From positions 196,002 to 260,001 of the forward strand of contig JAHFLD010000001.1 of the NCBI GenBank assembly GCA_023245035.1: a stretch of DNA of 64,000 nt, written 5' to 3'. Positions 4,851 to 64,000 of the stretch are shown in pieces (position 1 is the first letter of the stretch; each line of letters begins with the position of its first letter). Origin of the DNA: Candidatus Harrisonbacteria bacterium (GTDB lineage: Bacteria > Patescibacteriota > Minisyncoccia > UBA6257 > 1-14-0-10-40-38). The position numbers and the translations under genes were made by a program. The notes beneath the pieces were generated by a model, which was not told the DNA's origin, did no database searches, and saw only the letters and a list, made by a program, of their open reading frames with translations.

Positions 4851-4916
4851 ATAGTATTAAGAAAATTAAAAACTAGTTTAGTGTTATCATAGAAGATATG
4901 ATCTCTTGCGAAGAGA

Positions 4917-5285: not shown

Positions 5286-5324
5286 AAAGAAGGCATAAAT
5301 TTGAATATGCCCTCCGGACCTGTT

Positions 5325-5537
5325 TTAGGACGAATCTCTAGTTCCATTAATTAAATCGAGGGACTTTTTATGTCCACGACTTGCCTTTAAAAGTTCTTCT
5401 TGTCTAGCTACTACTTGGATTTTTGCAATACTCATTTGTTTTACATCGCAAAGACAGAACATAGAAAGATCTTCTAATACCGCAGGAAGGATATAAATAC
5501 TCCTATCGCGCTTCTTTCCGCACATGGAACACATCAT
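5325..5537 (-). CDS. hypothetical small protein (70 aa) with N-terminal CxxC
   Basis: ORF 'MMCSMCGKKRDRS...' lies downstream of the M16 peptidase on the same strand. AAGGAA sits 8 nt before the ATG. A TTGACA with an AT-rich -10-like region lies in the 175-bp upstream gap. Confidence 0.3.
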   Translation of the reverse strand: MMCSMCGKKRDRSIYILPAVLEDLSMFCLCDVKQMSIAKIQVVARQEELLKASRGHKKSLDLINGTRDSS

Positions 5538-5712
5538 GATTAGTGATTCCTTATTTTAAAGAACAAAGCCTTCACGCCTAGACCACCAGACTCAACGGCC
5601 GAGTGTCGATCCATCTAAGGATATATATTTTTAATATAATGTCAAACACCTAGAGAATTTTGCTAATTATCCCTCTTTATTAAGAGGTAGTGTTCTCTGT
5701 CAAAATTCACTC

Positions 5713-6975: not shown

Positions 6976-7060
6976 TGTAAACTCATTATTTAATCTTGTA
7001 AATTTAAAAAAATCACTCGCCTTATTTTTTATAAGGCGAGTGAAAACCGAGCGAAGTTCT

Positions 7061-7282
7061 CTACTTCGTACGGTTCGGACACGTCGTTGACGTGCAGTCG
7101 GGATCATCGCTGGTGTTGCATCCGGCGTCCCCGGGACCGCTGTAACTGGCAAGCATGGTACTTACCCCTTTTCGCTCATCGCGAAAACTCGCATCCTTTG
7201 ATGGCTCCACATACAACACTTCCAAATCCTGAGTTAGGATTTGATGTGAAATGAGGTTATTAGGACAGACGCCTACTAACAT
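7061..7282 (-). CDS. candidate small Cys/Ser/Thr-rich peptide (possible RiPP precursor); start uncertain (alternatives 7375 or 7156)
   Basis: ORF ends 'GPGDAGCNTSDDPDCTSTTCPNRTK'. It sits 85 nt upstream of and co-directional with the M16 peptidase. Locally GC-rich. No clear SD. Confidence 0.25.
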   Translation of the reverse strand: MLVGVCPNNLISHQILTQDLEVLYVEPSKDASFRDERKGVSTMLASYSGPGDAGCNTSDDPDCTSTTCPNRTK

Positions 7283-7508
7283 CACCGAAGTTGTAAAAGA
7301 ACCACCCCCAAACAGACTCAAGTTGGAGAGTCCAACGCGCAGTCTATCTGTATGAGAGTCATTATACGTTCTCAATAAAATAAGTCAAGGCCCAAAAAGC
7401 AGCCATCTTTTATAAAGGCACCAAAAAGGCTATAATCAAAGACACAAATACCCATCCATGACCCCAAACTACTCCGCCTGGATCTCTGGAATCTGATATA
7501 CTTCTTAA

Positions 7509-8573
7509 GTGATCTCAAATCAAGAAATAGAGGAAATAGTTACCGCTTCCATCAACGCCCCATCAGGGAGCAACTCTCAACCCTGGAAATTCAGGGTTTT
7601 TAATAATCAATTAGAAATTTTGGGATTTCCTGAAAAGGACCACCCGATTCTAAATTTTCGAAATCGTGGAACTTGGATAGCTCACGGAGCTTTAATTGAG
7701 AATATCAATATCGCCGCAACGGCTTTCGGATATGAAGCCCAGATTCAGGTATTTCCAAATGGAGAGAATACCGGCATTACTGGACGAATTAACTTTAAGA
7801 AAACAGAAAAACCAAAAGACGAACTTTTTGATTCAATACTCTTAAGAGCAACGAATCGAAAGCCCTATAAAGACAAGATATTAACTGTGAAGCAAAAAAG
7901 AGAATTTCTTATATCCGCGCAAGAAATTAATCCAAATTGCGATATTCGTATCACTGAAGATAAATTAGCAAAAAATATTTTAGGCAGTGCAGTCAGTGTT
8001 AACGAGGTTGTAATGCTAGAAAACGAGAAACTGCACCAACTTTTTTTTGATGAAATTGTATGGACCAAAGAAGAGGAATCAAAAAAGCAGAAAGGGTTAT
8101 ATTTAAAAACAATGGAACTAGGTTTTCCGCAGCGCACTGCTCTCCGACTTTTTAAACACTGGTCAATAATGAAAATAGCAAATAAATTTGGTGTGGCAAA
8201 AAAAATCGCAAATGATAATGCAAAAACATATAGCGCCTCTTCAATTATGGGGATAATAATAGTTGATGATACAGATAAAGATTTTATAGATGCAGGCAGA
8301 ATCATTGAGCGACTTTGGCTTAAGGCAACAAATGAAAAACTAGAATTCCATCTAATTACAGGAGTTATGTTTTTTTATCAAAGAGTCATGTCTGATCCCA
8401 AAGGATTTTCCCCGGTTCATATTGAACTAATCAAAAAAACATATAATCAAATTAAAGAAGTTTTCAAAGTGGAGAAAGGGGTCATCGCCGGACTTTTTAG
8501 AATCGGAGAAGACGGAAAGCCAACTGCAAGATCAATAAAATCCCCGCCAGAATTTATAAAAAAGTATGTCTAG
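7509..8573 (+). CDS. nitroreductase-fold (FMN-dependent oxidoreductase, SagB/McbC-like dehydrogenase fold) protein, 354 aa
   Basis: Nitroreductase signature 'ASINAPSGSNSQPWKFRVF' (APS..N.QPW.F). GTG start. The C-terminal ~200 aa extend beyond a minimal nitroreductase. Confidence 0.65.
   Translation: MISNQEIEEIVTASINAPSGSNSQPWKFRVFNNQLEILGFPEKDHPILNFRNRGTWIAHGALIENINIAATAFGYEAQIQVFPNGENTGITGRINFKKTEKPKDELFDSILLRATNRKPYKDKILTVKQKREFLISAQEINPNCDIRITEDKLAKNILGSAVSVNEVVMLENEKLHQLFFDEIVWTKEEESKKQKGLYLKTMELGFPQRTALRLFKHWSIMKIANKFGVAKKIANDNAKTYSASSIMGIIIVDDTDKDFIDAGRIIERLWLKATNEKLEFHLITGVMFFYQRVMSDPKGFSPVHIELIKKTYNQIKEVFKVEKGVIAGLFRIGEDGKPTARSIKSPPEFIKKYV
7545..7891. repeat. 347-bp perfect direct repeat, copy 2
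   Basis: Identical to 4935..5281. Confidence 0.85.
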
Positions 8574-10176
8574 TTTAGGAAATTTAGATCTGTTATCTGT
8601 AGGCGTCGCCATAGCGGCGAGTGCGATTCTTGGTTTCATTGTTTTTCTCTCAAATAAAAAAAGCGTAACGAATAGAACATTGTTTTTTTTCACGATAGAA
8701 TCAATTTTCTGGAATATTTTTAACTATCTAATATTCCAATTCAGTACTCCAGAAAAAGCTTTAATAATTCTTCGGTTTCACGTTTTCTTTGTAGTTTGGT
8801 ATTGCTTCTTACTTTTTCAGCTCTTTTACGTATTCCCAGAAGAGAAAAAAGCCTTCCCCAAGTGGTATAATTTCTTCCTTCTTCCGGTGGTGACGCTAGT
8901 TTCCATCCTAACCCTAACACCATTCACATTTGCCAAGGTTTTAGAATTTTCCAATGGACACATTCAAAAAGTTCTGAATGGATGGGGTATCTTCATATTT
9001 GGGGCAACGGTAGTTTCTTTGATTGTTGCTGGCCTATTAATTCTTTTAAGAAAGACAATGAGCGCAAATGCCACAGAAAAAAATCAATTCAGACTTATAT
9101 TAATTGGAACATCAATCACATTCTCGTTACACATAGCTTTTAATTTGATCTTTCCGGCATTTCTAGATAATCCAAATTTGATTATCTATGGAGCGATTTT
9201 CACTTTTCCATTCATCATCTTTACAGCTTATGCCATCCTAAAACTCCGCTTGTTGGGAGTAAAGGTGATTGCGACTGAAATATTAACCTTTTTCATTACA
9301 GTTGTTTCGCTGGCGCAGCTTATTTTAGCGACAACGTTAACAGAAAGAATTTTCCGTTTTGGAATCTTTTTACTAGTTCTTGGTTTTGGAATTTTACTTA
9401 TCCGCAGCGTCCGCAAGGAAGTCGAACAAAGGGAGAGATTAGAGATACTAACCAAAGATTTAGAAGCGGCCAATGCCAAGTTAAAAGAACTCGATGCCCA
9501 GCGCGCCGAGTGGTTGGGGTTCGCCTCGCATCAGGTTAAGTCGCCAATGGCTGTGGTCAAAGGCTACGCCCAGCTCATAATGGACGGCACCTACAATCCC
9601 GTCTCCGAAAAAGCCAAAGAAACCGCCGGCAAGATCAAAGAAAAAGTTGACGACTTGATAACCCTCGTCAGCAACTATATAAACGTAAGCAAAATTGATG
9701 AAGGCAAACTGGAAACGCCCAAGCTAAATCCGATAGACATCGTCAAACTTCTGCGCGATCTGGTGGAGGGCGAAAAAATCGTTGCCAAAAAACGCAACCT
9801 CGTCCTAACTTTCGAAAGCCTTGGCCCTTCGCTCATCATCAAAGCCGACGAAGAAAAAATTCGGCAAGTGGCGCAAAATCTCATCGACAACGCCCTCAAA
9901 TATACCGAAAAAGGTTTTGTTAACGTTAAACTGGAAGACAAAGGCCCATCGGTGCTGATTTCCATAACCGACTCCGGCCGTGGCATGTCGCCAACTCTTA
10001 TTGGCCGCCTGTTCAACCGCTACATTCGCGACGAAAAAACGAGCAAAGAAGTGCAAGGCACCGGTCTTGGTCTTTTTATCGCTAAACAAATTGTGCTCGC
10101 CCACAATGGAGAAATTTGGGCTGAGTCCGACGGCGAAGGCAAGGGTAGTAGGTTTTATTTCCGCCTACCAAAATAG
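8566..10176 (+). CDS. membrane sensor histidine kinase (multi-TM N-terminal domain)
   Basis: About 7 predicted TM helices. H-box 'ASHQVKSPMAVVKGY'. HATPase_c G-boxes 'DSGRGM' and 'GTGLGLFIAKQIV'. Overlaps the upstream gene by 8 nt. No DNA-binding response regulator adjacent. Confidence 0.8.
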   Translation: MSSLGNLDLLSVGVAIAASAILGFIVFLSNKKSVTNRTLFFFTIESIFWNIFNYLIFQFSTPEKALIILRFHVFFVVWYCFLLFQLFYVFPEEKKAFPKWYNFFLLPVVTLVSILTLTPFTFAKVLEFSNGHIQKVLNGWGIFIFGATVVSLIVAGLLILLRKTMSANATEKNQFRLILIGTSITFSLHIAFNLIFPAFLDNPNLIIYGAIFTFPFIIFTAYAILKLRLLGVKVIATEILTFFITVVSLAQLILATTLTERIFRFGIFLLVLGFGILLIRSVRKEVEQRERLEILTKDLEAANAKLKELDAQRAEWLGFASHQVKSPMAVVKGYAQLIMDGTYNPVSEKAKETAGKIKEKVDDLITLVSNYINVSKIDEGKLETPKLNPIDIVKLLRDLVEGEKIVAKKRNLVLTFESLGPSLIIKADEEKIRQVAQNLIDNALKYTEKGFVNVKLEDKGPSVLISITDSGRGMSPTLIGRLFNRYIRDEKTSKEVQGTGLGLFIAKQIVLAHNGEIWAESDGEGKGSRFYFRLPK

Positions 10177-10181
10177 TAAAT

Positions 10182-11375
10182 ATGGATTTAGAAAACATAG
10201 ACCAAAGTCGAAAGAAAACAACCATAGCTATTCTAATTTCTATTATTTTAATAGAATCTTTTTTAATTTATCTATATTTAAATGCTATTTCTCCCAAGTT
10301 AAAACCAATTTTACGACAAGAATCATCAGACATAATTTCACCTCAAGCAGAGATATTAAAAAATCATTCTAATCAAAAACTCGAACCATTTGTAAATTTC
10401 TTTCAAAGTGAATTATTTAAATTCTCTTTTCGATATCCAGCATCTGGTAGGATATTTAGTTTGGAAGAATTTGCTGGCGCTGAGGGATCTTCAGCGCTTG
10501 GAGTGAGTATAGGTGACAACGCGTTAACGGTCTTTATTGCGCGGATAGATAGCGATCTAGAGCAATACGCAAATGCAATTGCCTCTGCAAATAAAAAAAT
10601 AGACATGTTAGTGAAAACAAAAGTTGGAGAAGCTAACGCCTATACTTTTACAATAACAGGATCTGTTTTTACAACCTGCATCAATGGAGGGCCCAATGGC
10701 CATGAAGTCTGTGGTAGTTATGGTGGTCTTAATTCAGATCCAGGAGAGAAGAAAATAGCTGTTATAGACGGTGGTATTATAAAATTAATTTTTATATATC
10801 CAAAAAATATATCACCATTCGAGGAAGTGTTTAAAACAGTAAGCGTCGCCAACTTTGAAGTTTTTTCGTTCGAAAATATAGTTTGGAAAAATTTTGATGA
10901 GAATGAATTCGGAATTAGATTTGAGTATCCAGATGTTTACAACCTCACCCTAATATCTAATCCAAAATATCCAAATAATGTTTCAAAAGAATTTTCTTTA
11001 ATCGATAGTAAATCTAAAAACTTCCTTCCGCTACCATGGGTAGTAATTGATATTTTACCGATAGCGGGATATTCCGTTGGTGGAAGTGTATTTGGTGTTT
11101 CTTGGACGTACAATAGCAATACTCAAACTTGGGATAAACATGAAACTACTTCAAGAGCTGGAGAATATCTTTTCCCAAAGGAAATAATTTCCGCTCAAGG
11201 ATATAAAGGGTATTATTTTAACATCTCATATGAGGGTGGGGCGCATAATATAATCATATTGCCGTTCAAGGATAAGCTCATACAATTAGACTTCAAGATC
11301 CCGCCAGCTTTATTTGATCAAAGCCTCGTAGAGAAATTAGAAAGTAGTGTTTTTGATCATGTACTTCTAAAATAA
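10182..11375 (+). CDS. hypothetical membrane-anchored extracytoplasmic protein
   Basis: N-terminal TM segment 'IAILISIILIESFLIYLYL'. AT-rich. No motif recognised. Confidence 0.45.
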   Translation: MDLENIDQSRKKTTIAILISIILIESFLIYLYLNAISPKLKPILRQESSDIISPQAEILKNHSNQKLEPFVNFFQSELFKFSFRYPASGRIFSLEEFAGAEGSSALGVSIGDNALTVFIARIDSDLEQYANAIASANKKIDMLVKTKVGEANAYTFTITGSVFTTCINGGPNGHEVCGSYGGLNSDPGEKKIAVIDGGIIKLIFIYPKNISPFEEVFKTVSVANFEVFSFENIVWKNFDENEFGIRFEYPDVYNLTLISNPKYPNNVSKEFSLIDSKSKNFLPLPWVVIDILPIAGYSVGGSVFGVSWTYNSNTQTWDKHETTSRAGEYLFPKEIISAQGYKGYYFNISYEGGAHNIIILPFKDKLIQLDFKIPPALFDQSLVEKLESSVFDHVLLK

Positions 11376-11423
11376 CATTAGTGTAGTCAAATCCTAGCTC
11401 AAGATTTGCTATACTAAACCCAT

Positions 11424-11987
11424 ATGAAAAAAACACTTATTTTAGTGGCGGTGGTTGTGGTGGCTTTTCTCGGTTATGCGGTAATTCAAAAATCAAGAAA
11501 TACCGCCCAATCAACCGAGATTATTAGCGATAAAACTGAATGGAAAACTCACATCCACAGCGCTGGAGATTATTCATTTGAGTATCCAACAGGATGGTTC
11601 ATTAACGACTCGCCTAAAAATGGGGATGCATACGTTCGAGTTAGTAATTACGACCCCGAGATTTTTGTGAATGACATACACGCGAAAGGAAGTTATTTTA
11701 AAATAGAAATATACACTTTGGAAAATAAAAAACAGCTTAGTATTAACGACTGGATTGCGGAAGCTAGATCACGAACAGGCGATAGCTCAAAAATAACAAA
11801 ACAGGAAGAAATTATAATAAACGGAAAAACAGCAACTGCGATTACCCAAGAAAGCCCAGAAGGTGTGTATAAATCGCTGTATCTAAGCAATGAAGACAAA
11901 ATAGTAACGATTTTATTGTTTGGTGCGATTGAAGAATTTCACAAAACAAGCGATGCGATCATACATAGCTTTGCATTTAGTAATTAA
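11424..11987 (+). CDS. hypothetical secreted/membrane-anchored protein
   Basis: Signal/anchor 'MKKTLILVAVVVVAFLGYAV'. Confidence 0.45.
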   Translation: MKKTLILVAVVVVAFLGYAVIQKSRNTAQSTEIISDKTEWKTHIHSAGDYSFEYPTGWFINDSPKNGDAYVRVSNYDPEIFVNDIHAKGSYFKIEIYTLENKKQLSINDWIAEARSRTGDSSKITKQEEIIINGKTATAITQESPEGVYKSLYLSNEDKIVTILLFGAIEEFHKTSDAIIHSFAFSN

Positions 11988-14900
11988 GCAAAACAGAAAA
12001 GCGAGATTTTTTTTAGCGAATCTCTTTGTTTTGCTTGCATGGTTGCTGGTTTTACCCGCAAGTGTTTTTGCCAGTCAATTGACTTCTCCACTGACCAATT
12101 ATCAGGTTGTAAGCTGGTTTGATCATGATTATCCAGGAAGCTTACAAAACAATAATTTCACACGATATGATGGCCAACTATGGACTGATGGATCGGCGAA
12201 TCTATCAAACGCCACAGCGACTAGTTGTACTAACGGAATTAATTGTTATGACAGACATAATGGGATAGATCTGTTTGCCGTTACTGGAACTCCCGTATTC
12301 GCAGCCGAGAATGGTGTAGTTCAGCTCAACACCACCATGGGTTGTAATGGTAAATATGTTACAGTTCTAGACTCAGAAGGAAATACCGCTTTTTACACGC
12401 ATCTTGATTATGCAACCATAGGATCTGCCGGGACACCAGTTTTAAGATTTCAGCAAATAGGAGTAAGCGGAAGCACTGGTTGCACTACTGGTCCTCATCT
12501 TCATTTTGGGATCCATAACTCCGGTGACCTTGTCATTGACCCCTACGGCTGGTCTCCATCGCCAAACGCGCCAGTTCAGATAGACCCCTGGGTTCACAAC
12601 CAAGGCTATCTTTGGACTACTAATCCGCCATCGCTGAACGTGAACCCCGCCACCTACGTCTCCGGAGTTATCTCGCAAAACACCATATGGACTGCCCAAG
12701 GCAGTCCATATGTCATTCAAAATAACCTCACTGTTTCCGCCAGCACCACACTCACCATTAATCCCGGAGTAGTGGTGAAGTTTGACTCCTCCGCCAGCCT
12801 CTATATATACGGAACTCTCCTCGCCCAAGGCGGAACTTCCAGCACCACCCGAGTCTACTTCACCTCCATCAAAGATGACTCAATCGGCGGCGACACCAAC
12901 AACGACGGCGCCACCACTACTCCAGCCGTCGGAGATTACATGGGTATCTATTTCTATCCGAGTTCAATAGGAAATCTAACCCGCAACACCCTCCGCTATG
13001 GTGGAAACGATTTCTACCCATATCACTTTGGTGTGATCAAAAACCTTGGCGGCTCGGTAACACTTGCAAATAGTGAAATTAATTCTAACTATGGCAATGG
13101 CCTCAAACAAATTTCTGGAAACATATCACTAACCAGCAACTCAATTCACAACAACGGCGGCAGTGGATTTGAGCAAACTGGCGGCATGTCTACCACGACC
13201 AATTCAACATTTTCCGGAAACCAGACTTACGGGATCTTTCTCCAAAACGGAACCTCTACCATTACAAGTAATATTTTCAGCGATCACGGCAATGCGGATA
13301 TAAATATCAACGCACAATCGTATTTTAATCAATCCGGAAACGTTAGCTCCGGAATTGGTAAACATGGCATAGAAATATATGGAAGTTTAACGCACGACCA
13401 AGTTTGGAATCCTGGCATTCCGTTTATTCCGCAAAATATGGCCGTTAATTCAGGAAAAAGCTTAACAATTCTCCCTGGATCGGTCATAAAATTCGATGGA
13501 ATCAACGGTAATGGCGCCAACAATGGGGGGTTTATTACAGTTTATGGGCACCTCATCGCTCGTGAAAATCAACTCCAACCAAACTCACCGCAAATCTACT
13601 TCACCTCCTATGTTGACGATACCATCGGCGGCGACACTAATGGCAACGGTACGACAACGGTGCCATATTCAGGAATCTATCAAGGAATTTACTTCTATCC
13701 CGGTTCCACTGGTCTTTTTCAAAAAACTGCTTTGCGTTACGGAGGAGCCAGTTACTATCCATACTATGCTGGTGTGATTAAAAATTTCGGTGGCGAGATA
13801 AATATACAAAATAGCAACCTCTCATTAAACTCTCCAAGCGGTATCTATCAAGCATCCGGCACCACAACTATCAGCGGAACTTTAATAACAGACAACGTGA
13901 ACGACGGATTTTCTCAAAATGCGGGCGTTTCCACGGTCACTAACTCAATTTTCAGCAACAATCAATTTTTTGGTCTGAATCTTACTGGTGGCACTAGTAC
14001 TATAAATCAAACCATGTTTTCCAATCACTTGGGCGGGGACATTCAAATGTGGAATAATGGGGTCTTAATTCAATCCAATTTGCAAACCTCCGGAACCGGC
14101 AAACATGGTATTCGGGTTGCTGGCGGAATGACTAACAACCAAACCTGGACACCTGGACTACCTTATGTAATGAGTAGTTTTAATATTTTTGCCAATGCTA
14201 ATTTATCAGTCGCGCCAGCGACTGTTATAAAATTTGAGCCAGGTGGATCACTCTATGTTTTTGGCACTCTACAAATTTCAACTACTAGTCCCAATGCGGC
14301 CCGGGTCTATTTAACTTCGGTTCGCGACGATACTCTCGGCGGTGATTCCGATGGAGATGGCCGAGTCATTCTGCCAGCTCCCGGTGATTACACGGGAATT
14401 TATGCCCAACCGGGATCTTTAGTGAATCTTTTTAAAGTTGAAATGCGTTATGGGGGAAGTGATTATTACCCATATCGCTTTGGTGCAATTAAAAACTTCG
14501 GTGGACTGGTAGCTGCGCGATATACTAATTTTCTCAATAACTATTATCAGGCTTTGTACCAAATGAGCGGCACCTCAACCATCGTCTCGTCTTTAATCGC
14601 AAGCAGTACCCAAAACGGTATTAACCAATTAGGCGGCGGTCTTACCGTGGCCAACACCATTTTTTCCGGAAATTCCGGTTATGGCTTAAATCTTTCAGAC
14701 GGATTTGCGACCGTAACCAGTTCCTCATTTAATAACAATCAAAACGGCGATGCCTTCATTAATGGATTAGCTAACTTTACCCACGCTAATAATACTTTTC
14801 TTGGCGGCAAACACGGTTGGTATATGGGTGGCTATACAGATCATGACTGGACGTGGTCGCCGGAACAAGCCTATATTATTAATCCGGGTTTTCTTGTAGC

Positions 14901-15483
14901 TAGTGGCACTAGCTTAACAGTGCAACCAAATACCATCATCAAAGGCATTGCCTATGGAGAAATCGCAGTCGCGGGCACGGTCAACATGAATGGCATCGCT
15001 TCTACGAGTCGCATCTTCATCACCTCGCTAAAAGACGATTCCATCGGTGGCGATACAAACGCGGATAGCAACGCAACCACTCCGCAAAGCGCCGACTATA
15101 ATGGACTAACAATTCTGCCTGGCGGGAGCGCGAACCTAAATCAGGTTTTAGTAAAATATGGCGGTGGAGGTTATTACCCCAATTATTGGGGTGCGATTAA
15201 AAATCTTGGCGGCAACCTCTTTTTGGCCAACGACATTCTCCAGCAAAACCAAGTTGGCATATATACAACAGACGGCACAACTTCGATAAGTCAAAGCTCC
15301 ATTTACAGCAACACTGTCTATGGCATTTTGAATCAAAACTCAAATGCAACGGTAACCGCACAAAGCAACTGGTGGGGCGATGCCTCTGGCCCGCATAACT
15401 GGCTTACCAATACCGGTGGCTCCGGCAACGAAGTTCTCGGCAACGTCCTTTTTACCCCCTGGCTTGTAAGCGACCCGAATTAG
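11953..15483 (+). CDS. large secreted M23 (LytM-type) metallopeptidase fused to right-handed beta-helix (PbH1-like) repeats
   Basis: Signal peptide 'FFLANLFVLLAWLLVLPASVFAS'. M23 motifs 'HNGIDL' and 'GPHLHFGIH' (HxxxD...HxH). It is followed by about 900 aa of repeats such as 'GNGL', 'SGNQTYGIFL' and 'YGGSDYYPY' recurring four times, as in parallel beta-helix/adhesin modules. The start was moved from 11920 to an internal ATG to avoid overlapping the prior gene. Confidence 0.65.
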   Translation: MRSYIALHLVIKQNRKARFFLANLFVLLAWLLVLPASVFASQLTSPLTNYQVVSWFDHDYPGSLQNNNFTRYDGQLWTDGSANLSNATATSCTNGINCYDRHNGIDLFAVTGTPVFAAENGVVQLNTTMGCNGKYVTVLDSEGNTAFYTHLDYATIGSAGTPVLRFQQIGVSGSTGCTTGPHLHFGIHNSGDLVIDPYGWSPSPNAPVQIDPWVHNQGYLWTTNPPSLNVNPATYVSGVISQNTIWTAQGSPYVIQNNLTVSASTTLTINPGVVVKFDSSASLYIYGTLLAQGGTSSTTRVYFTSIKDDSIGGDTNNDGATTTPAVGDYMGIYFYPSSIGNLTRNTLRYGGNDFYPYHFGVIKNLGGSVTLANSEINSNYGNGLKQISGNISLTSNSIHNNGGSGFEQTGGMSTTTNSTFSGNQTYGIFLQNGTSTITSNIFSDHGNADININAQSYFNQSGNVSSGIGKHGIEIYGSLTHDQVWNPGIPFIPQNMAVNSGKSLTILPGSVIKFDGINGNGANNGGFITVYGHLIARENQLQPNSPQIYFTSYVDDTIGGDTNGNGTTTVPYSGIYQGIYFYPGSTGLFQKTALRYGGASYYPYYAGVIKNFGGEINIQNSNLSLNSPSGIYQASGTTTISGTLITDNVNDGFSQNAGVSTVTNSIFSNNQFFGLNLTGGTSTINQTMFSNHLGGDIQMWNNGVLIQSNLQTSGTGKHGIRVAGGMTNNQTWTPGLPYVMSSFNIFANANLSVAPATVIKFEPGGSLYVFGTLQISTTSPNAARVYLTSVRDDTLGGDSDGDGRVILPAPGDYTGIYAQPGSLVNLFKVEMRYGGSDYYPYRFGAIKNFGGLVAARYTNFLNNYYQALYQMSGTSTIVSSLIASSTQNGINQLGGGLTVANTIFSGNSGYGLNLSDGFATVTSSSFNNNQNGDAFINGLANFTHANNTFLGGKHGWYMGGYTDHDWTWSPEQAYIINPGFLVASGTSLTVQPNTIIKGIAYGEIAVAGTVNMNGIASTSRIFITSLKDDSIGGDTNADSNATTPQSADYNGLTILPGGSANLNQVLVKYGGGGYYPNYWGAIKNLGGNLFLANDILQQNQVGIYTTDGTTSISQSSIYSNTVYGILNQNSNATVTAQSNWWGDASGPHNWLTNTGGSGNEVLGNVLFTPWLVSDPN

Positions 15484-16963: not shown

Positions 16964-17036
16964 GGGTGTATAGCTCAATTGGTAGAGCGTCGGGTTGTGG
17001 TCCCGAAGGTTACGGGTTCAAAGCCCGTTACACCCC
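16964..17036 (+). tRNA. tRNA-His (anticodon GTG)
   Basis: Cloverleaf folded by hand. Acceptor GGGTGTA/TACACCC. D-arm GCTC-AATTGGT-AGAGC. Anticodon stem TCGGG/CCCGA with loop TTGTGGT. T-arm ACGGG-TTCAAAG-CCCGT. Discriminator C. No encoded CCA or G-1. Confidence 0.8.
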
Positions 17037-17442: not shown

Positions 17443-18999
17443 ATGAAACAAATCATCGAAATCGGCCCCGATCGTCGTCTCACCGCCGAGATTGTAAAAC
17501 TGGTCGCCGAAGATCCAAAAGTTGAAGTCGCGCTCACCAAGCGCGCCAAAAATAAAATCACCGCCTCCCGCAAAGTGGTGGAAAAAATCGTCAAAGAAAA
17601 AATGGTGGTCTATGGAGTTTCCACCGGCTTCGGCAAGTTCAAAGACAAGGCGATTAACGAAAAAGACACCGCCGAATTGCAGAGCAACTTAATTCGCAGT
17701 CACGCGACCGGTGTCGGCGCCCCGCTGTCCGCGGAACTTGTCCGCGCTATTATGCTGGTGCGTCTCAACTCGCTCTCCCAAGGTTATTCCGGTGTTCGTC
17801 TGGAGCTGGTGGAGACCGGACTTAAAATACTCAACTCTGGTGTCATTCCCGTAGTGCCCGCGCAAGGATCGGTTGGCGCTTCGGGAGATTTGGCGCCGCT
17901 CTCGCACCTTGGTTTGGTGCTGATGGGCGAGGGCGAAGCTTGGTTTGGCGGCGAACGCTTGCCTGGCGGGGAGGCCATGTCTCGCGCCGGAATCAAGCCG
18001 ATTATCTTCTCCTCTAAAGAAGGTCTGGCCTGGACCAACGGCACCGCTTTTATGACTGGCATCGCCTCGCTGGCGTTTGAAAAAGCCAAGCACCTGCTAG
18101 ATGTTGCCGACATCGCTTGCGCCTTAACTTTAGAGGGAGTCGCCGGAATCCCAACCGCCTTTGACGAGCGCATTCACCAGCTCCGCGAGCATCCGGGGCA
18201 AATCAAGGTTGCCGAGCACATCCGTGCCCTAACCAAAAATTCCAAATTGGTTAACAAGTTTCCGCAAAGGATTCAGGACTCCTACACGCTCCGTTGCGCT
18301 CCCCAAGTTCACGGCGCGGTGCGCGACGCCGTCTCCTATGTTGAAAAAGTTTTGGAACGCGAACTGCGCGCCGTCACCGACAATCCGTTGATTTTTAACG
18401 AACCGCCCTATGCTCTTTCCGGTGGCAATTTTCACGGCCAGCCGCTTTCAATTTCTATGGATGTCCTCAAAATTGCCATCTCGGGATTGGGTAATATCTC
18501 CGAACGCCGAACCGCCAAACTGGTAGACTCGGCGACTAACGAAGGTTTGCCGCTCTTCCTGATTCCCAAAGAAAAAGCCGGACTGCACAACGGCTTTATG
18601 ATTCCGCAATATACCGCCGCCGCCCTCGTCTCGGAAAATAAGATTCTTTCTCATCCCGCCTCGGTTGATTCCATTCCGACCTCCGCTAACCAAGAGGATC
18701 ATGTAAGCATGGGTTCCATCGCCGCCCGCAAGGCGCTCGAAGTTGTGCAAAACGCGGAGAACATTCTGGCGATTGAACTTCTAACCGCCGCCCAAGCCGT
18801 GGAATTCCGCGACCCGCAAAAACTGGGGCAGGGAACTAAAAAAGCCTACAAAATTATCCGAGCTAAAGTTGCCCCGCTGACCCACGACCGCGTCTTGCAT
18901 TATGATATAGTAGCCGTACAGCAAATAATCGCCGGCAAAAAGCTGGCCAAGATTTTGGAAAATCAAACCGCTAATGGAGCCAAAAAAAGCCGAAACTAA
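17443..18999 (+). CDS. hutH: histidine ammonia-lyase (aromatic amino acid lyase family)
   Basis: MIO-forming 'GSVGASGDLAPLSHL' signature and family-wide similarity. Confidence 0.85.
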   Translation: MKQIIEIGPDRRLTAEIVKLVAEDPKVEVALTKRAKNKITASRKVVEKIVKEKMVVYGVSTGFGKFKDKAINEKDTAELQSNLIRSHATGVGAPLSAELVRAIMLVRLNSLSQGYSGVRLELVETGLKILNSGVIPVVPAQGSVGASGDLAPLSHLGLVLMGEGEAWFGGERLPGGEAMSRAGIKPIIFSSKEGLAWTNGTAFMTGIASLAFEKAKHLLDVADIACALTLEGVAGIPTAFDERIHQLREHPGQIKVAEHIRALTKNSKLVNKFPQRIQDSYTLRCAPQVHGAVRDAVSYVEKVLERELRAVTDNPLIFNEPPYALSGGNFHGQPLSISMDVLKIAISGLGNISERRTAKLVDSATNEGLPLFLIPKEKAGLHNGFMIPQYTAAALVSENKILSHPASVDSIPTSANQEDHVSMGSIAARKALEVVQNAENILAIELLTAAQAVEFRDPQKLGQGTKKAYKIIRAKVAPLTHDRVLHYDIVAVQQIIAGKKLAKILENQTANGAKKSRN

Positions 19000-26028: not shown

Positions 26029-26207
26029 GGTTTCTACCTGCCAGATACGGCCGGGCTGATTTCTTGGCCTTTGAAAAGTTAATCACCGATAATGAGTCAA
26101 AGATTTTATAGTTGTCCCAATGTTTAGAAGTTACTGATTTACGAATCGTGGCGAACTTGCGAATTTATTCGCATATTCGTACGCATTCGTATATTTGTAA
26201 TTTCATT

Positions 26208-27862
<1,655 letters not shown>

Positions 27863-28100
27863 AACTTACACTTTCTCACCTTGCTTCGGCAGGAGAAAAA
27901 GTGGAGTGTCGATCTATAAAAAAAGAAGGTGTTGACCGATGAACCTTAAGTCTCGGTCCGTCAGTCGCTTCGGCGACCGCGTAAGGTTTTAGATATTGAG
28001 ATGGCGCAAGCCGTCGCGATTTATAAGACTATTGGGGCAACTATAAAGTGTTTGGACTCAAATTAACGGTAAGCAACAATCAAAAATCGGTACAAGAAAA

Positions 28101-49944: not shown

Positions 49945-50307
49945 TTATTTCTGGTGTCGCGATAAAATAAACAAAGATCCGGCGGCCAAAGCCAAAGCTA
50001 AATCGCGAAAAACTATATCCAGCAAGACCAGGTTTGGCGCCACGATTCCAACTAGGGTCAACGCCGCCGCTAAAGCCGCTAAGCGCGATGTCCTCTGGTA
50101 GAGCAGTGCCCCGCCAAGCATTAACTCATAGATGGAAAAAATAGCGAGCAAGATATTTTGCGGAACCAATGCCTTCATGAATTGCGGAAAATAACCAATC
50201 CACGAATCCGGATCAATAAAAGAAGCAATTGCGGCATAGAAAAAAACGCCGGCCAAAGCAACGCGCAACAACCAGATCGCCAAAGCCAAGCGTTTTTCTT
50301 CGGGCAT
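49945..50307 (-). CDS. DoxX-like membrane protein
   Basis: 'LALAIWLLRVALAGVFFYAAIASF'. Confidence 0.45.
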   Translation of the reverse strand: MPEEKRLALAIWLLRVALAGVFFYAAIASFIDPDSWIGYFPQFMKALVPQNILLAIFSIYELMLGGALLYQRTSRLAALAAALTLVGIVAPNLVLLDIVFRDLALALAAGSLFILSRHQK

Positions 50308-50316
50308 ACTTAAGAA

Positions 50317-50802
50317 CTATCGCACGACAACGACCCCGCCTCGGCTTGGTCGGAGATGGTCATGATACTTCCAAGTTCCGGGAGTCGTAAAAGTAAAGGC
50401 ATAACTTTCGCCAGAACCAAAACCTCTATCCGCGTCAAATTCCTTTAAAGTCGTATGCGCCGGATGCGGATTGGAAGCCACCCACATCTTATCCGAAGTC
50501 TGATTGGTAAAGGTAACAGTTGTGCCCGGCGAAACGGTAACGGTATTCGGCAAAAAACCATCTTGAGTGTAATTTACGTTTACTGTGGTCGGCTTAACTT
50601 GATTCGGCGCCGGATTTTCGGCAACAACTTTTTCTTCTGTCGCTGGTTGTTGTGTCGCGGGCTGGGGTGTTGATGCTTCTGTCTCCGTGGTAGGAGCACT
50701 ATTAACTTGCGCTCGGCGACGGACAAAACTACCGCCAAAAAACGAGGCCGCCGTCGACACTGCTACTATCAGTACCACAAAAACCGTAAAGAATTTTTTC
50801 AT
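50317..50802 (-). CDS. hypothetical secreted protein, cupredoxin-like single domain (tentative)
   Basis: Signal anchor. 'TVSPGTTVTFTN...WKYHDHL' loosely resembles cupredoxin-fold proteins, but no Cys ligand is present. Confidence 0.3.
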   Translation of the reverse strand: MKKFFTVFVVLIVAVSTAASFFGGSFVRRRAQVNSAPTTETEASTPQPATQQPATEEKVVAENPAPNQVKPTTVNVNYTQDGFLPNTVTVSPGTTVTFTNQTSDKMWVASNPHPAHTTLKEFDADRGFGSGESYAFTFTTPGTWKYHDHLRPSRGGVVVVR

Positions 50803-50880
50803 GTTAAAAGATTATTTATCAGTACTCTTTATTTATCCTACGCTTGAAGCAAAAATAGTCAATCAAACAAAGGAGGTGTT

Positions 50881-52641
50881 CTATCCGCGGCCGCGATAAC
50901 TGGCGTCTTCATCCTCAATTGCGAGCGCGGCCCGTTTTTTCTTTAACAGCGCGTGGGAGCGAAAAGCAAAAAAAGAACCAATGCCCAGCGCCACCAAGGT
51001 CAGGCTTCCATAATAAGGCAATCCGCGCCGCAAGCGATCCCAGACCAAGGATTTGACGATGGTCACCCGAATCGGCGCTTGTAATTTTTCCCAGGTGCCC
51101 TTGTTTCGGTAGTAGGCGATTAAGTAGTAGTTTCCCGGGGCAAAGCCATCAAGTTGTATTTTTTGGCTTCCTTTGGGAACGATAATCTGTTTGGTTAGGC
51201 GAAAATTCTCGTCAAAGACATCAATTCGGTACTCCTCGGCCGATTTTGGAATTATCAGATCGTTAAAGGAGATAACAATACTGCCGGTGCCGTTGAATCC
51301 GGTCGCGGTAAACGCGACACTAATCGGTCCATCGATTGGCGCGCCTGGTTGGTCAGGAGTAGTCCCGGTATTATTCGGCGGTGGCGTAGCGCCCGGGGGC
51401 GGTGGAGGAGTCACGGTCCCCGAAGGCGGAATCTGCGGTGGCGGCGGTGTTGAGGAAGAAGATGAGGCCGTGAGCGTTGTAAAGATCAACGTTGAGGAAG
51501 CGGCGTTGCCCGCCGGATCGGCGGTTAACAAGGTTGCCGTATAAGTAGTTGCCGGAGCCAGGCCAGAGACACTAACCGAGTGCTCCAACTCATAAGTCGG
51601 ATCAAAGGCATTCCCGCTGAAAGTGCCGGCTCGCGAAACCGTAACCCAGGAATTGGCCGCTTCATTGGTTGTCCAAACGAAATTAACGTTCGTGGCGCCA
51701 AGATTGCTAATCGTCGCGGAAATAATTTGGGGTGGGGTAATATCTCCCGAAGGCGGCGGTGGTGGTGGAGGCAAACCGCCAGTTGGCGGCGGAGGTGCTA
51801 TGGCGGAAAAATCTTGTGGTGTTACAAACGATCCAGTCGTTGAAGCTTGATTTCCCCACGAATCATAAGCCGTCAGCGTAAAGTTATAATTTGCGCCGGG
51901 CAAAGTGTCGAGCGTTAAGCTACAGTTCGCGATTCCCGACGGACAGGTTGCGTATGAGCCGTAAGGTCCGGCAACTTGCGGTGCTTGTCCTGGTCGCGCG
52001 TAATTCACGTCAAAGTCAACCGGCTCGTTAGCGTTAAAAAACAAAGTGGTGGCGTAGGGAGAAGATGGCGAAGTGGTGGCGTTCGAAATTAAAGGCGGCG
52101 ATGTCTCGGTGGTCTCATAAAGCGCGAACTTAAAACTAAAAGGTTGCTCCGACGCGCCCAAGTAAGCGGTTCCCAAAAGATATTCGGGATAAGCTTGAGA
52201 ATTGTGCGGCAAAATTTGAAAGCGATTTACGTAGTGCAACCACAACTCCGGCGGAAAACTCAAAAGTTTCAAAGTATAAGTCGCTCCGGTGTTGACTGGA
52301 ATTAACGAGGAGAAATCAAAATGAAAGCGAGTGCCGCCCCAAACCGGCGGAGCGACGGGAATCGTTACTGTTACTGCCGCAAGTTGCCCGCCGCTCGCGC
52401 CATAAAGTCCAAAAGTAGCCGCGCCCGACCCGCCCTCGTTGTCTATCCAAATATCCAGACCGCGCAAAAAATCGTTGTAAACCGGAAACTCCTGCGAGAC
52501 GGTATCATACGCCGCCACCTTAAGTCTTTCATCGTAATTCTCCGGCGCGAATTCAAAAAAACGTGTTCCGTGCGCCAAGCTTTGAGCCGGCCAGAAGGCC
52601 AAACCAACTAAAACAAAAAGAAAAAAAGGTCGCAGTCTCAT
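50881..52641 (-). CDS. large Pro/Thr-rich surface protein with C-terminal membrane anchor
   Basis: Signal peptide. Linkers 'PPPTGGLPPPPPPPSGDITPP' and 'TPPPPPGATPPPNNTG'. C-terminal TM 'LTLVALGIGSFFAF' followed by 'KKKR'. Confidence 0.5.
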   Translation of the reverse strand: MRLRPFFLFVLVGLAFWPAQSLAHGTRFFEFAPENYDERLKVAAYDTVSQEFPVYNDFLRGLDIWIDNEGGSGAATFGLYGASGGQLAAVTVTIPVAPPVWGGTRFHFDFSSLIPVNTGATYTLKLLSFPPELWLHYVNRFQILPHNSQAYPEYLLGTAYLGASEQPFSFKFALYETTETSPPLISNATTSPSSPYATTLFFNANEPVDFDVNYARPGQAPQVAGPYGSYATCPSGIANCSLTLDTLPGANYNFTLTAYDSWGNQASTTGSFVTPQDFSAIAPPPPTGGLPPPPPPPSGDITPPQIISATISNLGATNVNFVWTTNEAANSWVTVSRAGTFSGNAFDPTYELEHSVSVSGLAPATTYTATLLTADPAGNAASSTLIFTTLTASSSSSTPPPPQIPPSGTVTPPPPPGATPPPNNTGTTPDQPGAPIDGPISVAFTATGFNGTGSIVISFNDLIIPKSAEEYRIDVFDENFRLTKQIIVPKGSQKIQLDGFAPGNYYLIAYYRNKGTWEKLQAPIRVTIVKSLVWDRLRRGLPYYGSLTLVALGIGSFFAFRSHALLKKKRAALAIEDEDASYRGRG

Positions 52642-62507: not shown

Positions 62508-62765
62508 TCAGCTTCGTCCGAGCAATCTTAAAACCTCTTCTCGCGTCATAAGTCCCCGCCGCTTTACCTCCTGCTCCACCAGCTCCCGAACTTGGTCCTC
62601 CAAAATCTTCTTGCTGTCTTTGGCCTGTTCCATTAACACCTTTAATTGATCGGGGGACATGCCCTTCATCATCTCGGAGGCCGCCTTAAATTGATCAAAC
62701 ATTCCCATAAGGATAAGTTGCGCGATGAGTAAAAAACCAAAAATCTTTCTAATATATTCTACCAA
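62508..62765 (-). CDS. hypothetical small protein
   Basis: One TM followed by a charged helix. ORF only. Confidence 0.3.
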   Translation of the reverse strand: MVEYIRKIFGFLLIAQLILMGMFDQFKAASEMMKGMSPDQLKVLMEQAKDSKKILEDQVRELVEQEVKRRGLMTREEVLRLLGRS

Positions 62766-64000
62766 GCCGTGTCCGCGTGGTGCACCTCGCCGTCGGGAAA
62801 GCTTACCACAATACCGCCGGTAGCCGGAGCGGACAAAGTTACGGTATCCTCCAGATGAACATCAGTGTCTAAATTATGCGTACTCCCGCGGAATTTCATC
62901 CTGGAAAGATGGCCATAGCGCGAAGCCTTGGTCGTCGGCGCGTGAACCACGCTAGTCCCGCCATGCACATCCGTGCTCTTAAAATGCTGGTTAGTGGTTG
63001 AAAGATGGTCGGTTGTATCTCTTCCGTGGGTATCAGTATTCACCAAATGATCATCAGTTTCATAAGTATGAGAATCAGTGTTCGGCTGATGTTCGTCGCT
63101 GTCCAGGAGATGAGTCACCGTGCTTGGTTGGTGGACGGTGGTTATTTCGGAATGACTGTTAGTATTCCCATAGTGGGAATCAGTGCTTAAAGTGTGTTCC
63201 TCGGTAGTTCCCAAATGACTTCCGGTGTCCGGAGCATGGGTATTGGTATTGAACAAGTGTTCATCGGTATTTTGCGCGTGCTCATCGCTGTCATCAGAAT
63301 GCGCGTTGGTTGAAGATTGATGGCTGTCGGTATTTGCCAAATGATCGCTTGTATCGCTGTAATGCAAGTTGCTGTCTCCCGTGTGCTCAATGCTGTCGGA
63401 AAAATGACTGTCAGTATCCGTGGCATGAGTGCTAGTGTTGACCAAGTGACTATTCGTATTAGCTTCGTGTTCGTCGGTATTTATCCAATGCTGAGCGCTA
63501 TCTGAATAATGATCATCTGTGTTTAAAAAATGCTCGCTAGTAGTTAGTAAATGAGTTCCGGTATCAGCCCCATGCGTATCGGTATTGGCCAAATGTTCGC
63601 CAGTGTCATTCAAATGAACATCGGTTTCACTAGAGTGGCTGTTAGTGTTCGCCTCATGTGAATCGGTATTCGGGGTATGACTATCGGTGCTCGAATTATG
63701 AATATCCGTAAGCAGAGTGTGTTCTAACGTTGTCGCAATGTGGCTTCCGGTATCAACTGCGTGGGTGCCGGTATCGGGTGAGTGCTGATCAGTATTTTGA
63801 TAATGGTCAACCGTACTTACTAAATGATCGCTCGTTGATTGATAATGCGCATCTGTATCTTGTGTGTGGCCACTAGTATCTTGCCAATGATTATCCGTGT
63901 TCTGTGCGTGAGATGTCGTGTCCTGCCAATGATCATCTGTGTTCTGCATATGAGAACTTGTCCCTGGATAATGCTCATCCGTTAGGAACGAATGAACATT
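62759..64000 (-). CDS. His/Thr/Asp-rich heptad-repeat protein, N-terminus beyond window end
   Basis: About 47 consecutive 7-residue repeats fitting H-x-x-[DNS]-T-[DST]-x (for example HWQDTTS, HAQNTDN, HLANTDS). The reading frame is open to position 64000. The C-terminus 'GGIVVSFPDGEVHHADTAW' is non-repetitive. Confidence 0.6.
   Translation of the reverse strand, partial: NVHSFLTDEHYPGTSSHMQNTDDHWQDTTSHAQNTDNHWQDTSGHTQDTDAHYQSTSDHLVSTVDHYQNTDQHSPDTGTHAVDTGSHIATTLEHTLLTDIHNSSTDSHTPNTDSHEANTNSHSSETDVHLNDTGEHLANTDTHGADTGTHLLTTSEHFLNTDDHYSDSAQHWINTDEHEANTNSHLVNTSTHATDTDSHFSDSIEHTGDSNLHYSDTSDHLANTDSHQSSTNAHSDDSDEHAQNTDEHLFNTNTHAPDTGSHLGTTEEHTLSTDSHYGNTNSHSEITTVHQPSTVTHLLDSDEHQPNTDSHTYETDDHLVNTDTHGRDTTDHLSTTNQHFKSTDVHGGTSVVHAPTTKASRYGHLSRMKFRGSTHNLDTDVHLEDTVTLSAPATGGIVVSFPDGEVHHADTAW

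Follow-up and report, generated by a model that had tools for sequence, protein, structure and literature searches.

A histidine-heptad gene at the end of the window

At the end of the stretch of DNA analysed here (64,000 nucleotides from a Candidatus Harrisonbacteria bacterium, in the following the window), the minus strand from 64000 to 62759 reads as a single open frame closed by a stop codon at 62759-62761; the other five frames of the same segment contain 14-39 stops each. These 1242 nt (413 codons and the stop) are the 3' part of a gene for a protein of tandem seven-residue units that begin with His, here called the His-heptad gene. Fifty-one consecutive heptads of the form H-x-x-[DN]-[TS]-[DN]-x, units 8-58 of 58, occupy positions 62924-63994 of the minus strand, followed at 62762-62923 by a non-repeat C-terminal tail of 54 residues (SRYGHLSRMKFRGS...GGIVVSFPDGEVHHADTAW). 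An earlier note on this DNA had placed the N-terminus beyond position 64000 and proposed extending the contig to recover it together with any signal peptide. An independent Logan assembly (L081), identical to the window across 4398 nt, provided both: it contributes 86 further residues including a signal peptide, and yields a complete gene of 1500 nt (L081:1390-2889) that starts 258 nt past the window end and encodes a protein of 499 residues, laid out as signal peptide, 58 heptads of the above form and the 54-residue tail. The same 499-residue gene is called in a third assembly (ENA), and a near-identical strain (L168) shows 2 nt differences in 840. The source environment is represented by SRR14366769 and ERZ27296333. 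Since the L081 and ENA assemblies and the L168 strain bear out the window sequence, we exclude the two artefacts that the earlier note had considered, an interruption of the frame upstream and a collapsed repeat.

Directly downstream of the His-heptad gene, the minus strand carries a called ORF of 54 residues (62508-62672), helical and forming a cluster of one member, which probably shares a transcription unit with it. This ORF is not among the families common to related loci and, being unconserved there, is left out of the system described below. A scan for intrinsic terminators was negative, and promoter matches did not exceed the background.

The heptad pattern is far beyond chance. His occupies position 1 of 51 consecutive units beginning at residue 3 of the window ORF, and the longest run of His at every seventh residue is 53; with the same residues shuffled 2000 times, this run averages 2.5 and reaches 7 at most. 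The strict period and the invariant His of the earlier note thus stand, its count of about 47 perfect heptads becomes 51 consecutive units in the window, and the Thr it took to be invariant at position 5 is in fact Thr or Ser (45 and 6 of the 51). Across the 58 units of the full gene, position 1 is always His (58/58), position 4 is D, N, S or T in 51 (D or N in 36), position 5 is Thr in 47 and Ser in 11, and position 6 is D, N, S or G in 44. The spacing of seven is kept throughout the array, with one HH (HHPDSMV), no HxH and, in the repeat protein as a whole, no Gly pairs; no super-period of 14, 21 or 28 residues was significant (best z 1.6).

At the DNA level, the degenerate 21-bp periodicity described in the earlier note was borne out: TRF detected only a 66-bp piece of the repeat DNA, and the 21-nt units share a mean pairwise identity of 46%. 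This low identity, together with the use of both His codons (36 CAT and 22 CAC in the heptads) and of all four Thr codons, points to selection at the protein level, and the repeat is old and maintained as a protein sequence.

These observations also bear on whether the ORF might be an artefact or a non-functional stretch of low complexity, produced by a collapsed assembly repeat or by a frame that is open by chance. Such a reading could draw on the low-complexity look of the protein, on the lack of an exact match to it in a large protein collection and on the empty results of word-index searches. It is contradicted by the concurrence of three assemblies, by the near-identical strain with its 2 differences in 840 nt, by units that have diverged in DNA yet are invariant at His and Thr/Ser, and by relatives with conserved synteny in other phyla. 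Given the diverged units, the synteny in an unrelated organism and the agreement with the L168 strain, we regard an artefact or chance ORF as refuted, with next to no probability left to it.

A partner gene linked to His-repeat genes across phyla

Just past the window end, out of view of the earlier note, lies a gene of 423 residues, here called the partner, with the His-heptad gene 21 nt downstream of it and a second His-heptad paralogue on its opposite side. The protein has a positively charged N-terminus and a TM helix at residues 22-45, giving an N-in/C-out membrane anchor. Its AlphaFold2 (AF2) model, calculated from a 63-sequence alignment, reaches a pLDDT of 91 and has no relative of the same fold in the PDB; the family is unannotated, and judging from this model its fold looks new. 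At least 535 homologues were found, every one annotated as hypothetical, some of them from Bdellovibrionales. Conserved motifs include YPTEGFYY, DESG and NNYFDGPGDQVP, in this order, and the extracytoplasmic domain holds many invariant Asp, Glu, Asn, Tyr and Arg residues, located in loops (E120, D220-E221-S222-G223, N290, D294-G-P-G-D298, R276, R337 and Tyr residues), with no invariant His, Cys or Ser. In some partners the C-terminal tail consists of two to three copies of the repeat of the neighbouring gene.

In an unrelated organism, the gene directly upstream of a His-heptad protein shares 45% identity with the partner (E 3e-111). In 11 close-clade partner loci (L081/L168, L082, L083, L084, L085, L086, L088, L091, L165, L166 and L167), drawn from Patescibacteria, Phycisphaerales and metagenome contigs, a His-heptad gene is adjacent to the partner or one gene away. 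More broadly, 27 of 84 loci have, within 4 kb of the partner, an ORF in which 8 or more His are regularly spaced, and so do 20 of the 33 loci where both flanks extend for at least 1.5 kb; the other 13 well-flanked loci have no detectable His repeat nearby. As a control we used 80 Patescibacteria loci (1.2 Mb) gathered via a neighbouring Dus gene, none of which contained an ORF with regularly spaced His or, specifically, a His-heptad ORF. The partner and the His-repeat protein are the only families common to the compared loci, and a search for a third conserved gene found none that is shared.

Several other genes were seen near individual loci. A gene for a HEAT-repeat protein separates the partner gene from the heptad gene in L083 and L167, both planctomycete-like loci; a gene of the PF00144 beta-lactamase family is found near two loci (L165, L166), and the AP_endonuc_2 genes seen close to the window locus and in L083 form no joint cluster.

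In the partner phylogeny, clades match the type of repeat encoded next to them. The pair was found in three phyla or more (Patescibacteria, Planctomycetota and Alphaproteobacteria), and across phyla the two genes travel together.

The repeat protein itself proved difficult to place. The earlier note had not recognised it as a described repeat family, and searches agree: no member of either family matched Pfam (E<=0.01), NCBIfam, PHROGs or PADLOC, and the repeat profile (A3) matched no PDB sequence even at E<=10. Word-indexed homology searches came back empty for the protein itself as well as for a repeat profile of 41 segments, and the exact 499-residue protein is not present in the large protein collection searched in this way. 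Relatives were reached only through an exhaustive profile search of a library of 1.84 billion representatives, which gave 96 matches, about 12 of them genuine relatives and the remainder eukaryotic low-complexity repeats.

Next to more distant partners, including that of the cultured Polymorphum gilvum, His repeats are found with periods of 6 to 15 residues. In P. gilvum SL003B-26A1 the two genes lie at CP002568.1 ~3.664-3.682 Mb (L164:5738-7990 and 8001-9116). Ser or Thr stands at His+4 in 98% of the units of the window protein and in 89-100% of heptad-type units, and at His+5 in 82-100% of the units in 13 non-heptad arrays (periods 6, 8, 10, 11, 12, 14 and 15). The proteobacterial relatives are strongly basic, with units rich in Arg, Lys and Gln, and many units of relatives contain no hydrophobic residue at all, e.g., SHNQKG. 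Only His and Ser/Thr are common to all repeats. As the unit length varies from 6 to 15 and the offset from His to Ser/Thr is fixed, these arrays suggest a short linear motif rather than a single rung geometry.

Predicted structure and comparison with known repeat families

Signal peptides and membrane anchors were read from the sequences by eye with the help of a hydropathy profile, and in this reading the window protein and its relatives each carry one or the other at the N-terminus. In relatives the repeat is often internal, between the anchor and a C-terminal globular domain, and this layout, together with the signal peptide, fits the extracellular or surface role that the earlier note had envisaged. 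The mature protein has 464 residues (36-499 of the precursor), a pI of 4.9, 78 Asp+Glu against 7 Lys+Arg (net charge about -71), 64 His and no Cys; with a GRAVY of -1.15 it would, by our own arithmetic, count as unfolded with respect to the charge-hydropathy boundary. AF2, run on the single monomer sequence and thus blind to any oligomeric or metal-dependent fold, gave a pLDDT of 39.8, left the repeat without secondary structure and placed two short strands in the C-terminal tail at low confidence. The beta-solenoid proposed in the earlier note is therefore not predicted, there being no strands in the repeat, and the binding of metal, ice or minerals suggested alongside it is, for the repeat, conjecture.

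Beta-solenoids such as the insect and bacterial antifreeze proteins (TxT/TxN) and RTX rolls (GGxGxDxUx), as well as the HxH sites of phage fibres, resemble the window protein in being extracellular and composed of short units in tandem, in which Thr/Asx or His are aligned. Beta-solenoid rungs have 9-19 residues (a nonapeptide in RTX, 12-19 residues in the TxT/TxN type) and Gly, Cys or hydrophobic cores, or in phage fibres HxH pairs. With a period of 7 and no Cys, Gly pairs, significant super-period or AF2 strands, the window protein does not belong to the RTX or antifreeze solenoids, and having no HxH and no PHROG match it does not carry metal sites of the phage-fibre type.

A fibre reading, which takes up the model of the earlier note, would have the heptads fold, probably as an oligomer (e.g., a triple-stranded beta-helix), with an internal or aligned ladder of His that coordinates metal ions, and the partner serve as membrane anchor and as assembly chaperone or nucleator. 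Trimeric beta-helices such as that of T4 gp5 place one strand per chain in each rung, which periods of 6-8 residues would match, and phage fibres need an adjacent chaperone. The stalk-like position of the heptads between N-terminal anchor and C-terminal globular domains in relatives, the hydrophobic or aromatic residues at position 2 in 26 of the 58 units and the C-terminal repeat copies on some partners, which could template assembly, are all in its favor. We nevertheless hold such a fibre to be improbable: AF2 shows no strands, there is no significant super-period of 14 or 21 residues, many relatives have units devoid of hydrophobic residues, and units of 6 to 15 residues with constant His-Ser spacing are hard to fit to a single rung geometry.

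The earlier note had also set the repeat apart from a classical coiled-coil heptad, a view that is supported. The AF2 model shows no helix, and ten of the 58 units have Pro at position 3, as do 19 of 227 in relatives. The source organism belongs to the candidate phyla radiation (CPR), in which, to our knowledge, autotransporters are not expected. Trimeric autotransporter adhesins (TAAs) offer a comparison: the '---NT--' heptad, with Asn as its fourth and Thr as its fifth residue, is shared with their stalks and with designed polar-core coiled coils, and so are polar core positions. Our searches of the literature on motif strings and on His ladders or zippers surfaced only His-zipper and polar-core coiled-coil papers. 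TAA stalks are long and surface-located and include natural runs of His at d, with 39 such heptads, and T@e follows N@d in about half of cases (PMC13580157). The window protein has the corresponding residues at d and e (D/N 36/58; T/S 58/58), and its consensus H-x-x-N-T-D-x agrees with the pattern; a coiled coil of alpha-helices, probably a trimer, whose core is fully polar (His a, Asn/Asp d, Thr e) and possibly ion-stabilised, would extend that motif, and heptad His 'zippers' do occur in helical hairpins (PMC8616854). TAAs, however, have a hydrophobic residue at a where the window protein has His, Pro is frequent at position 3 of the latter, and no TAA head, neck, YadA-type anchor or other TAA domain was detected (Pfam E<=0.01), so that membership of the TAA stalks, with their Pro-free sequence, is rejected. 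A polar coiled coil is likewise disfavored by a composition of T, S, D, N, G and H, by the His+5 offset of non-heptad relatives, which is not a helical same-face spacing, and by the designed non-hydrophobic TDENTKR coiled coil, which is unfolded by itself (PMC13580157); we think this solution very improbable.

His-zipper coiled coils (the Serendipita DELD protein 5LOS, CASP14 T1083/T1084/T1087 and the Nitrosomonas SmbP type) have heptad-spaced His and are secreted or periplasmic, as here, and metal scavenging is only a guessed function for them (PMC8616854). They are short alpha-helical hairpins rich in Ala, Glu and Lys and well predicted by AF2, whereas the window protein is rich in T, S, D, N, P and G, has 58 units with no predicted helix and is accompanied by a dedicated partner gene; with the A3 profile also finding no PDB match at E<=10, it is not a member of the DELD/SmbP type. 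The His-rich proteins Hpn, HRP-II, histidine-rich glycoprotein and the histatins share a high His content and a proposed multivalent metal binding. Unlike the window system, they lack a strict long-range periodicity, a fixed Ser/Thr residue and a conserved neighbouring gene, and proteins of this type have clustered His (HH, HxH, GHHPH).

A candidate two-gene extracytoplasmic system

The features that define the class we propose, namely one His per unit with Ser/Thr at a fixed offset, an N-terminal signal or anchor and an adjacent gene of the partner family, are all present at the window locus. We suggest, with a probability of roughly 0.4, that the repeat is an extracytoplasmic array of His-x3/4-[ST] motifs with the partner as its receptor, and that the acidic form found in CPR bacteria binds metal in a pH-dependent manner. 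The functional unit would be a short linear motif and not a rung of a fold. It reads His-x3-[ST] in the window protein and His-x4-[ST] in distant relatives, and many copies of it would line an extended chain that is polar, for the most part unstructured and located outside the membrane. The partner ectodomain (residues 46-423) would act as a dedicated receptor for this motif, through which the array docks on the cell surface and is perhaps processed as well; once docked, the array could present a polyvalent surface of imidazole, carboxylate and hydroxyl groups, and in relatives the same module may form a stalk bearing a globular domain. For the acidic CPR version, the likeliest chemistry would be reversible, pH-dependent binding of divalent metal by His and the neighbouring Asp/Asn, with one site of His plus carboxylate per heptad and hence up to about 58 sites. 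As the proteobacterial relatives are basic and only His and Ser/Thr are universal, carboxylate-assisted metal binding is not proposed as the function of the whole family. Ser/Thr is a poor metal ligand, and the strict conservation of this residue fits recognition or modification better than chelation. The 13 well-flanked partner loci with no detectable His repeat nearby also speak against the proposed reading.

The invariant acidic and Tyr residues of the partner would also suit an enzyme, and the repeat could then be a multi-site substrate in which the Ser/Thr (or His) of each His-x3/4-[ST] is modified or cross-linked by an extracytoplasmic partner, for instance through glycosylation, the addition of a phospho-ester or a cross-link derived from His and Ser/Thr; the functional product would be the polymer so modified. 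Precedents are the staphylococcal Ser-Asp repeat stalks and the serine-rich-repeat adhesins with their dedicated adjacent modifying enzymes. A His-to-Ser/Thr offset that is strictly fixed regardless of unit length and net charge, the many invariant polar loop residues of the partner, the tight gene coupling with co-divergence of the two families, and the motif copies on some partners, which could be auto-substrates, are all in line with this reading, which we consider unlikely but credible. The Gram-positive systems share with ours a low-complexity, polar, extracellular stalk and an adjacent accessory gene; their accessory enzymes, however, are cytoplasmic glycosyltransferases of the GT-A/GT-B type, whereas the partner described here is extracytoplasmic, has a fold without a PDB relative and accompanies a motif centred on His. 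Processing might alternatively mean that the repeat is a polyprotein precursor cut by the partner, as a peptidase, into short His peptides (e.g., copper- or nickel-binding X-X-His). Tandem short units behind a secretion signal would suit a precursor, and the D-T-H-K units of relatives recall the N-terminal Cu/Ni site of albumin. There is little chance of this in our view, given that the units are highly variable with no conserved flanking cleavage signal, that the partner has no catalytic residues of the Ser, Cys, His or zinc type, and that the repeat is an internal linker from anchor to globular domain in many relatives.

We put it at only just short of an even chance that the two genes form a widespread and undescribed extracytoplasmic system, in which a membrane-anchored partner of new fold recognises or chemically transforms every motif of a His-x3/4-Ser/Thr polymer, with units of 6 to 15 residues and a net charge from strongly acidic to strongly basic. 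Such a system could amount to a new way of modifying or cross-linking proteins, or else to a surface polymer that is loaded with metal and switched by pH.

If this holds, a new class of repeat and a new fold family would be acting together outside the cell. The invariant spacing from His to Ser/Thr across unit lengths provides a testable sequence rule that implies a specific recognition chemistry, and since Polymorphum gilvum, which has the pair, is in culture, the system is open to experiment. For protein science, the repeats offer natural chains of 400 residues without hydrophobic core positions for studies of folding, metal binding and assembly. In CPR bacteria, whose envelope and host-attachment proteins are almost wholly uncharacterised, the pair is a candidate surface component and could take part in attachment to host cells.

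The His-heptad gene and its product

The 3' part of the gene occupies window 62759-64000 on the minus strand as a single open frame with its stop at 62759-61, while the remaining five frames of this interval carry 14-39 stops each. From the third residue of the in-window translation, 51 consecutive His-first heptads (62924-63994, minus strand) were counted where the earlier note had estimated about 47, and the strict seven-residue period is real: 53 His lie in register, against never more than 7 in shuffled sequences. An independent Logan assembly (L081) matches the window without a difference over 4398 nt and runs on past its end, supplying the N-terminus expected past position 64000. The start lies 258 nt past the window end, and the full gene of 1500 nt encodes 499 residues in three parts: a signal peptide of typical form (MNFFLK-TSFAILFFVIFLSILASG-...IFA/QS), 58 heptads (five units, a two-residue insertion, 53 units) and a 54-residue tail. 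The same 499-aa product is called in a third assembly. With the frame open, three assemblies in agreement and a near-identical strain differing by 2 nt in 840, the His-heptad observation is confirmed, and the chance of a collapsed repeat or other artefact is negligible.

Position 1 is His in all 58 units and position 5 is Thr (47) or Ser (11); Asp/Asn fill position 4 in 36 units and position 6 in 32, position 2 is frequently Leu, Tyr, Trp or Phe, and Pro occupies position 3 in 10 (17%). The underlying 21-bp DNA periodicity is as degenerate as had been claimed: units share only 46% pairwise identity, His is encoded by both of its codons and Thr by all four, and TRF detected only a 66-bp fragment. 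The periodicity is therefore maintained by protein-level selection, and not by recent DNA expansion or assembly collapse. No significant super-period of 14 or 21 residues was seen in the array.

The mature chain (464 residues, pI 4.9, GRAVY -1.15) contains 78 acidic and 7 basic residues, 64 His and no Cys; the gene thus encodes a real, highly polar repeat protein, secreted as predicted from its signal peptide. None of the Pfam, PHROGs, NCBIfam or PADLOC models and no PDB sequence matches it, and word-indexed homology searches returned no relatives. When a profile was searched exhaustively against 1.84 billion representative proteins, 96 matches came back; about a dozen are true relatives from bacteria, their units diverse around the consensus H-x-x-N-[TS]-D-[TS]. 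Given the signal peptide and the missing family match, the earlier description of an undescribed, extracellular His-ladder repeat stands in outline; the accompanying solenoid, metal-binding and ice-binding ideas are unproven.

Some relatives share the short architecture of the window protein, with 11-50 heptads after a signal or anchor; in others the heptads separate an N-terminal anchor from C-terminal globular domains that lack annotation, and here the module appears to behave as a stalk. Such stalk-like architectures favor a fibre built as an oligomeric beta-helix and bearing a His ladder, for which the neighboring partner protein would be chaperone or anchor. We consider this unlikely, as single-sequence AlphaFold2 prediction gave a pLDDT of 39.8 with no secondary structure in the repeat, many relatives lack hydrophobic positions, and unit length is variable. 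A polar-core coiled coil, with His at a, Asn at d and Thr at e, would fit the '---NT--' motif of trimeric autotransporter adhesins (PMC13580157), but the Pro at position 3, the residue composition and the same AlphaFold2 result make it highly improbable. A peptide polyprotein is equally improbable.

The partner family and the His-to-Ser/Thr spacing

The decisive context lies beyond the window, in a conserved partner gene and a spacing rule. The partner gene, 21 nt upstream of the His-heptad gene and just outside the window, encodes a 423-aa protein (P0001) whose positively charged N-terminus is joined by a single TM helix to a large, predicted extracytoplasmic domain. P0001 shares 45% identity (E 3e-111) with the product of the gene directly upstream of a 1038-aa His-heptad protein in an unrelated organism. 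Invariant Pro, Glu, Tyr, Asn, Arg, Asp and Gly residues fall in the motifs YPTEGFYY, GNxR, DESG and NNYFDGPGDQVP; the family alignment contains no invariant His, Cys or Ser. Two secreted members (P0132 and P0135, 707-728 aa) consist of two partner domains in tandem, which suggests that the domain can function unanchored and in duplicate.

All close-clade partner loci with usable flanks (L081/L168, L082, L083, L084, L085, L086, L088, L091, L165, L166, L167) have a His-heptad gene adjacent or one gene away, with the exception of L087. The partner there neighbors a 616-aa Cys-rich protein (L087:2544-4391) with only a degenerate, short and irregular His cluster (HESDTHMGDTRIIKHTGDSHEGSDSH) and no regular heptad array, possibly a degenerate client or an alternative one. 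The L091 partner matches a protein labelled Phycisphaerales by NCBI, and L165 has two tandem His-heptad paralogs. In the present genome, as seen in the near-identical strain (L168), His-heptad genes flank the partner on both sides: the second, just past the window end and upstream of the partner gene (L168:1609-2499), encodes 296 residues with a signal peptide and about 30 HxxNTDx units in a visible higher-order repeat of about seven heptads. All-against-all clustering left the partner and the His-heptad protein as the only two families common to the loci. At 27 of 84 partner loci, an ORF in which 8 or more His recur at regular spacing lies within 4 kb; the count is 20 of 33 where both flanks reach at least 1.5 kb, compared with 0 of 80 control loci (1.2 Mb). 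A secreted 346-aa HEAT-repeat protein, between a long-architecture His-heptad gene and the partner (L083:8110-9150 and L167:4672-5712), may be a third, lineage-specific component; in two loci, a gene of the PF00144 (beta-lactamase/serine-hydrolase) family (L165:5069-6787 and L166:10963-12774) is no more than two genes away from the partner.

More distant members of the partner family are linked to His repeats whose period is not seven: 6 (SHNQKG-type unit; L105, L144, L159), 8 (L116, L147), 10 and 11 (L147, L151), 12 (WPPNHxxxxSxx; L092, L094, L112, L134), 14 (L148) and 15 (L164). The last is a 750-aa protein of cultured Polymorphum gilvum, encoded directly upstream of its 'lipoprotein' partner. 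In the partner tree the heptad-linked, 12-mer-linked and proteobacterial groups stand apart, and in some of the 12-mer-linked partners the C-terminus consists of two or three copies of the repeat found in the neighboring protein. The partner is thus conserved, co-diverging with the repeat, extracytoplasmic, and of a fold with no relative in the PDB. While the net charge of the arrays ranges from strongly acidic to strongly basic, the His-hydroxyl spacing is fixed across the arrays compared: Ser/Thr stands exactly at His+5 in 82-100% of units in 13 of 13 non-heptad arrays, and at His+4 in 89-100% of units in heptad arrays (n=5). Since this offset persists across unit lengths, the conserved element would be a short His-x3/4-[ST] motif and not a fixed-length rung.

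Host and genomic surroundings

The gene neighborhood is cellular, with UvrABC, Dus, peroxiredoxin, TGT and 16S rRNA. Of the best 80 Dus relatives from GTDB genomes (47-56% identity), nearly all belong to MAGs labelled Patescibacteria/CPR, the remainder having no lineage name except one 'PVC group' MAG, and by this relationship the host is a CPR bacterium. Its 16S rRNA gene (26205-27866, plus strand) is 1662 nt long, where the model has 1533 positions, and no 23S gene adjoins it. This points to an insertion and to an rRNA operon that is not linked; both have been reported for CPR bacteria.

GC content falls to 36-40% at about 2000-12000, against about 50% elsewhere. This stretch, possibly an island for peptide modification of the RiPP type, encodes two ORFs that match no family (2203-3702, 10182-11375) together with a ThiF-family protein (3708-4850), a minus-strand M16 peptidase (5713-7152), a nitroreductase-like protein (7509-8573) and a 7TM histidine kinase (8566-10176). 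An 1187-aa protein (11920-15483, plus) with an M23 peptidase domain and a right-handed beta-helix region could serve an epibiotic CPR cell as a surface enzyme that degrades cell walls. The window has a single tRNA, tRNA-His (16964-17036, plus), which is followed by an aromatic/histidine ammonia-lyase gene (17443-18999, plus; E 2e-196), and their occurrence in the same 64 kb as a 64-His protein is probably coincidence. Ten kb from the His-rich gene, a three-gene minus-strand cluster (49945-52641) encodes a DoxX membrane protein (49945-50307), a cupredoxin-like protein (50317-50802) and a 586-aa protein, part of which weakly resembles fibronectin III; its predicted functions would be copper- or redox-related.

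A putative client of the partner

We suggest as the likeliest reading, at a probability of about 0.4, that the array is the partner's client. The partner would dock it at the membrane's outer face and might also process it; the docked array would present a polyvalent imidazole surface, which in the acidic CPR version could bind divalent metals reversibly and in a pH-dependent manner. The strict conservation of Ser/Thr could instead reflect an enzyme that modifies or cross-links each His-x3/4-[ST] motif, a less probable alternative given that the partner has no known catalytic fold and that donors are absent outside the membrane.

The nearest described systems are alpha-helical histidine zippers (PMC8616854), the N@d/T@e layers of trimeric autotransporter adhesins (PMC13580157) and polar-ladder solenoids; repeat stalks with dedicated modifying enzymes and generic His-rich metal binders are similar by analogy only. 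For each of histidine zippers, adhesin N@d stalks, RTX/antifreeze solenoids and phage HxH sites, a tested defining feature was absent from the His-heptad protein, which is therefore not placed in any of these families. Together with its partner, the repeat appears to form a new class. Its interest is high because strong comparative evidence joins two uncharacterized families, and because a cultured organism possesses the pair.
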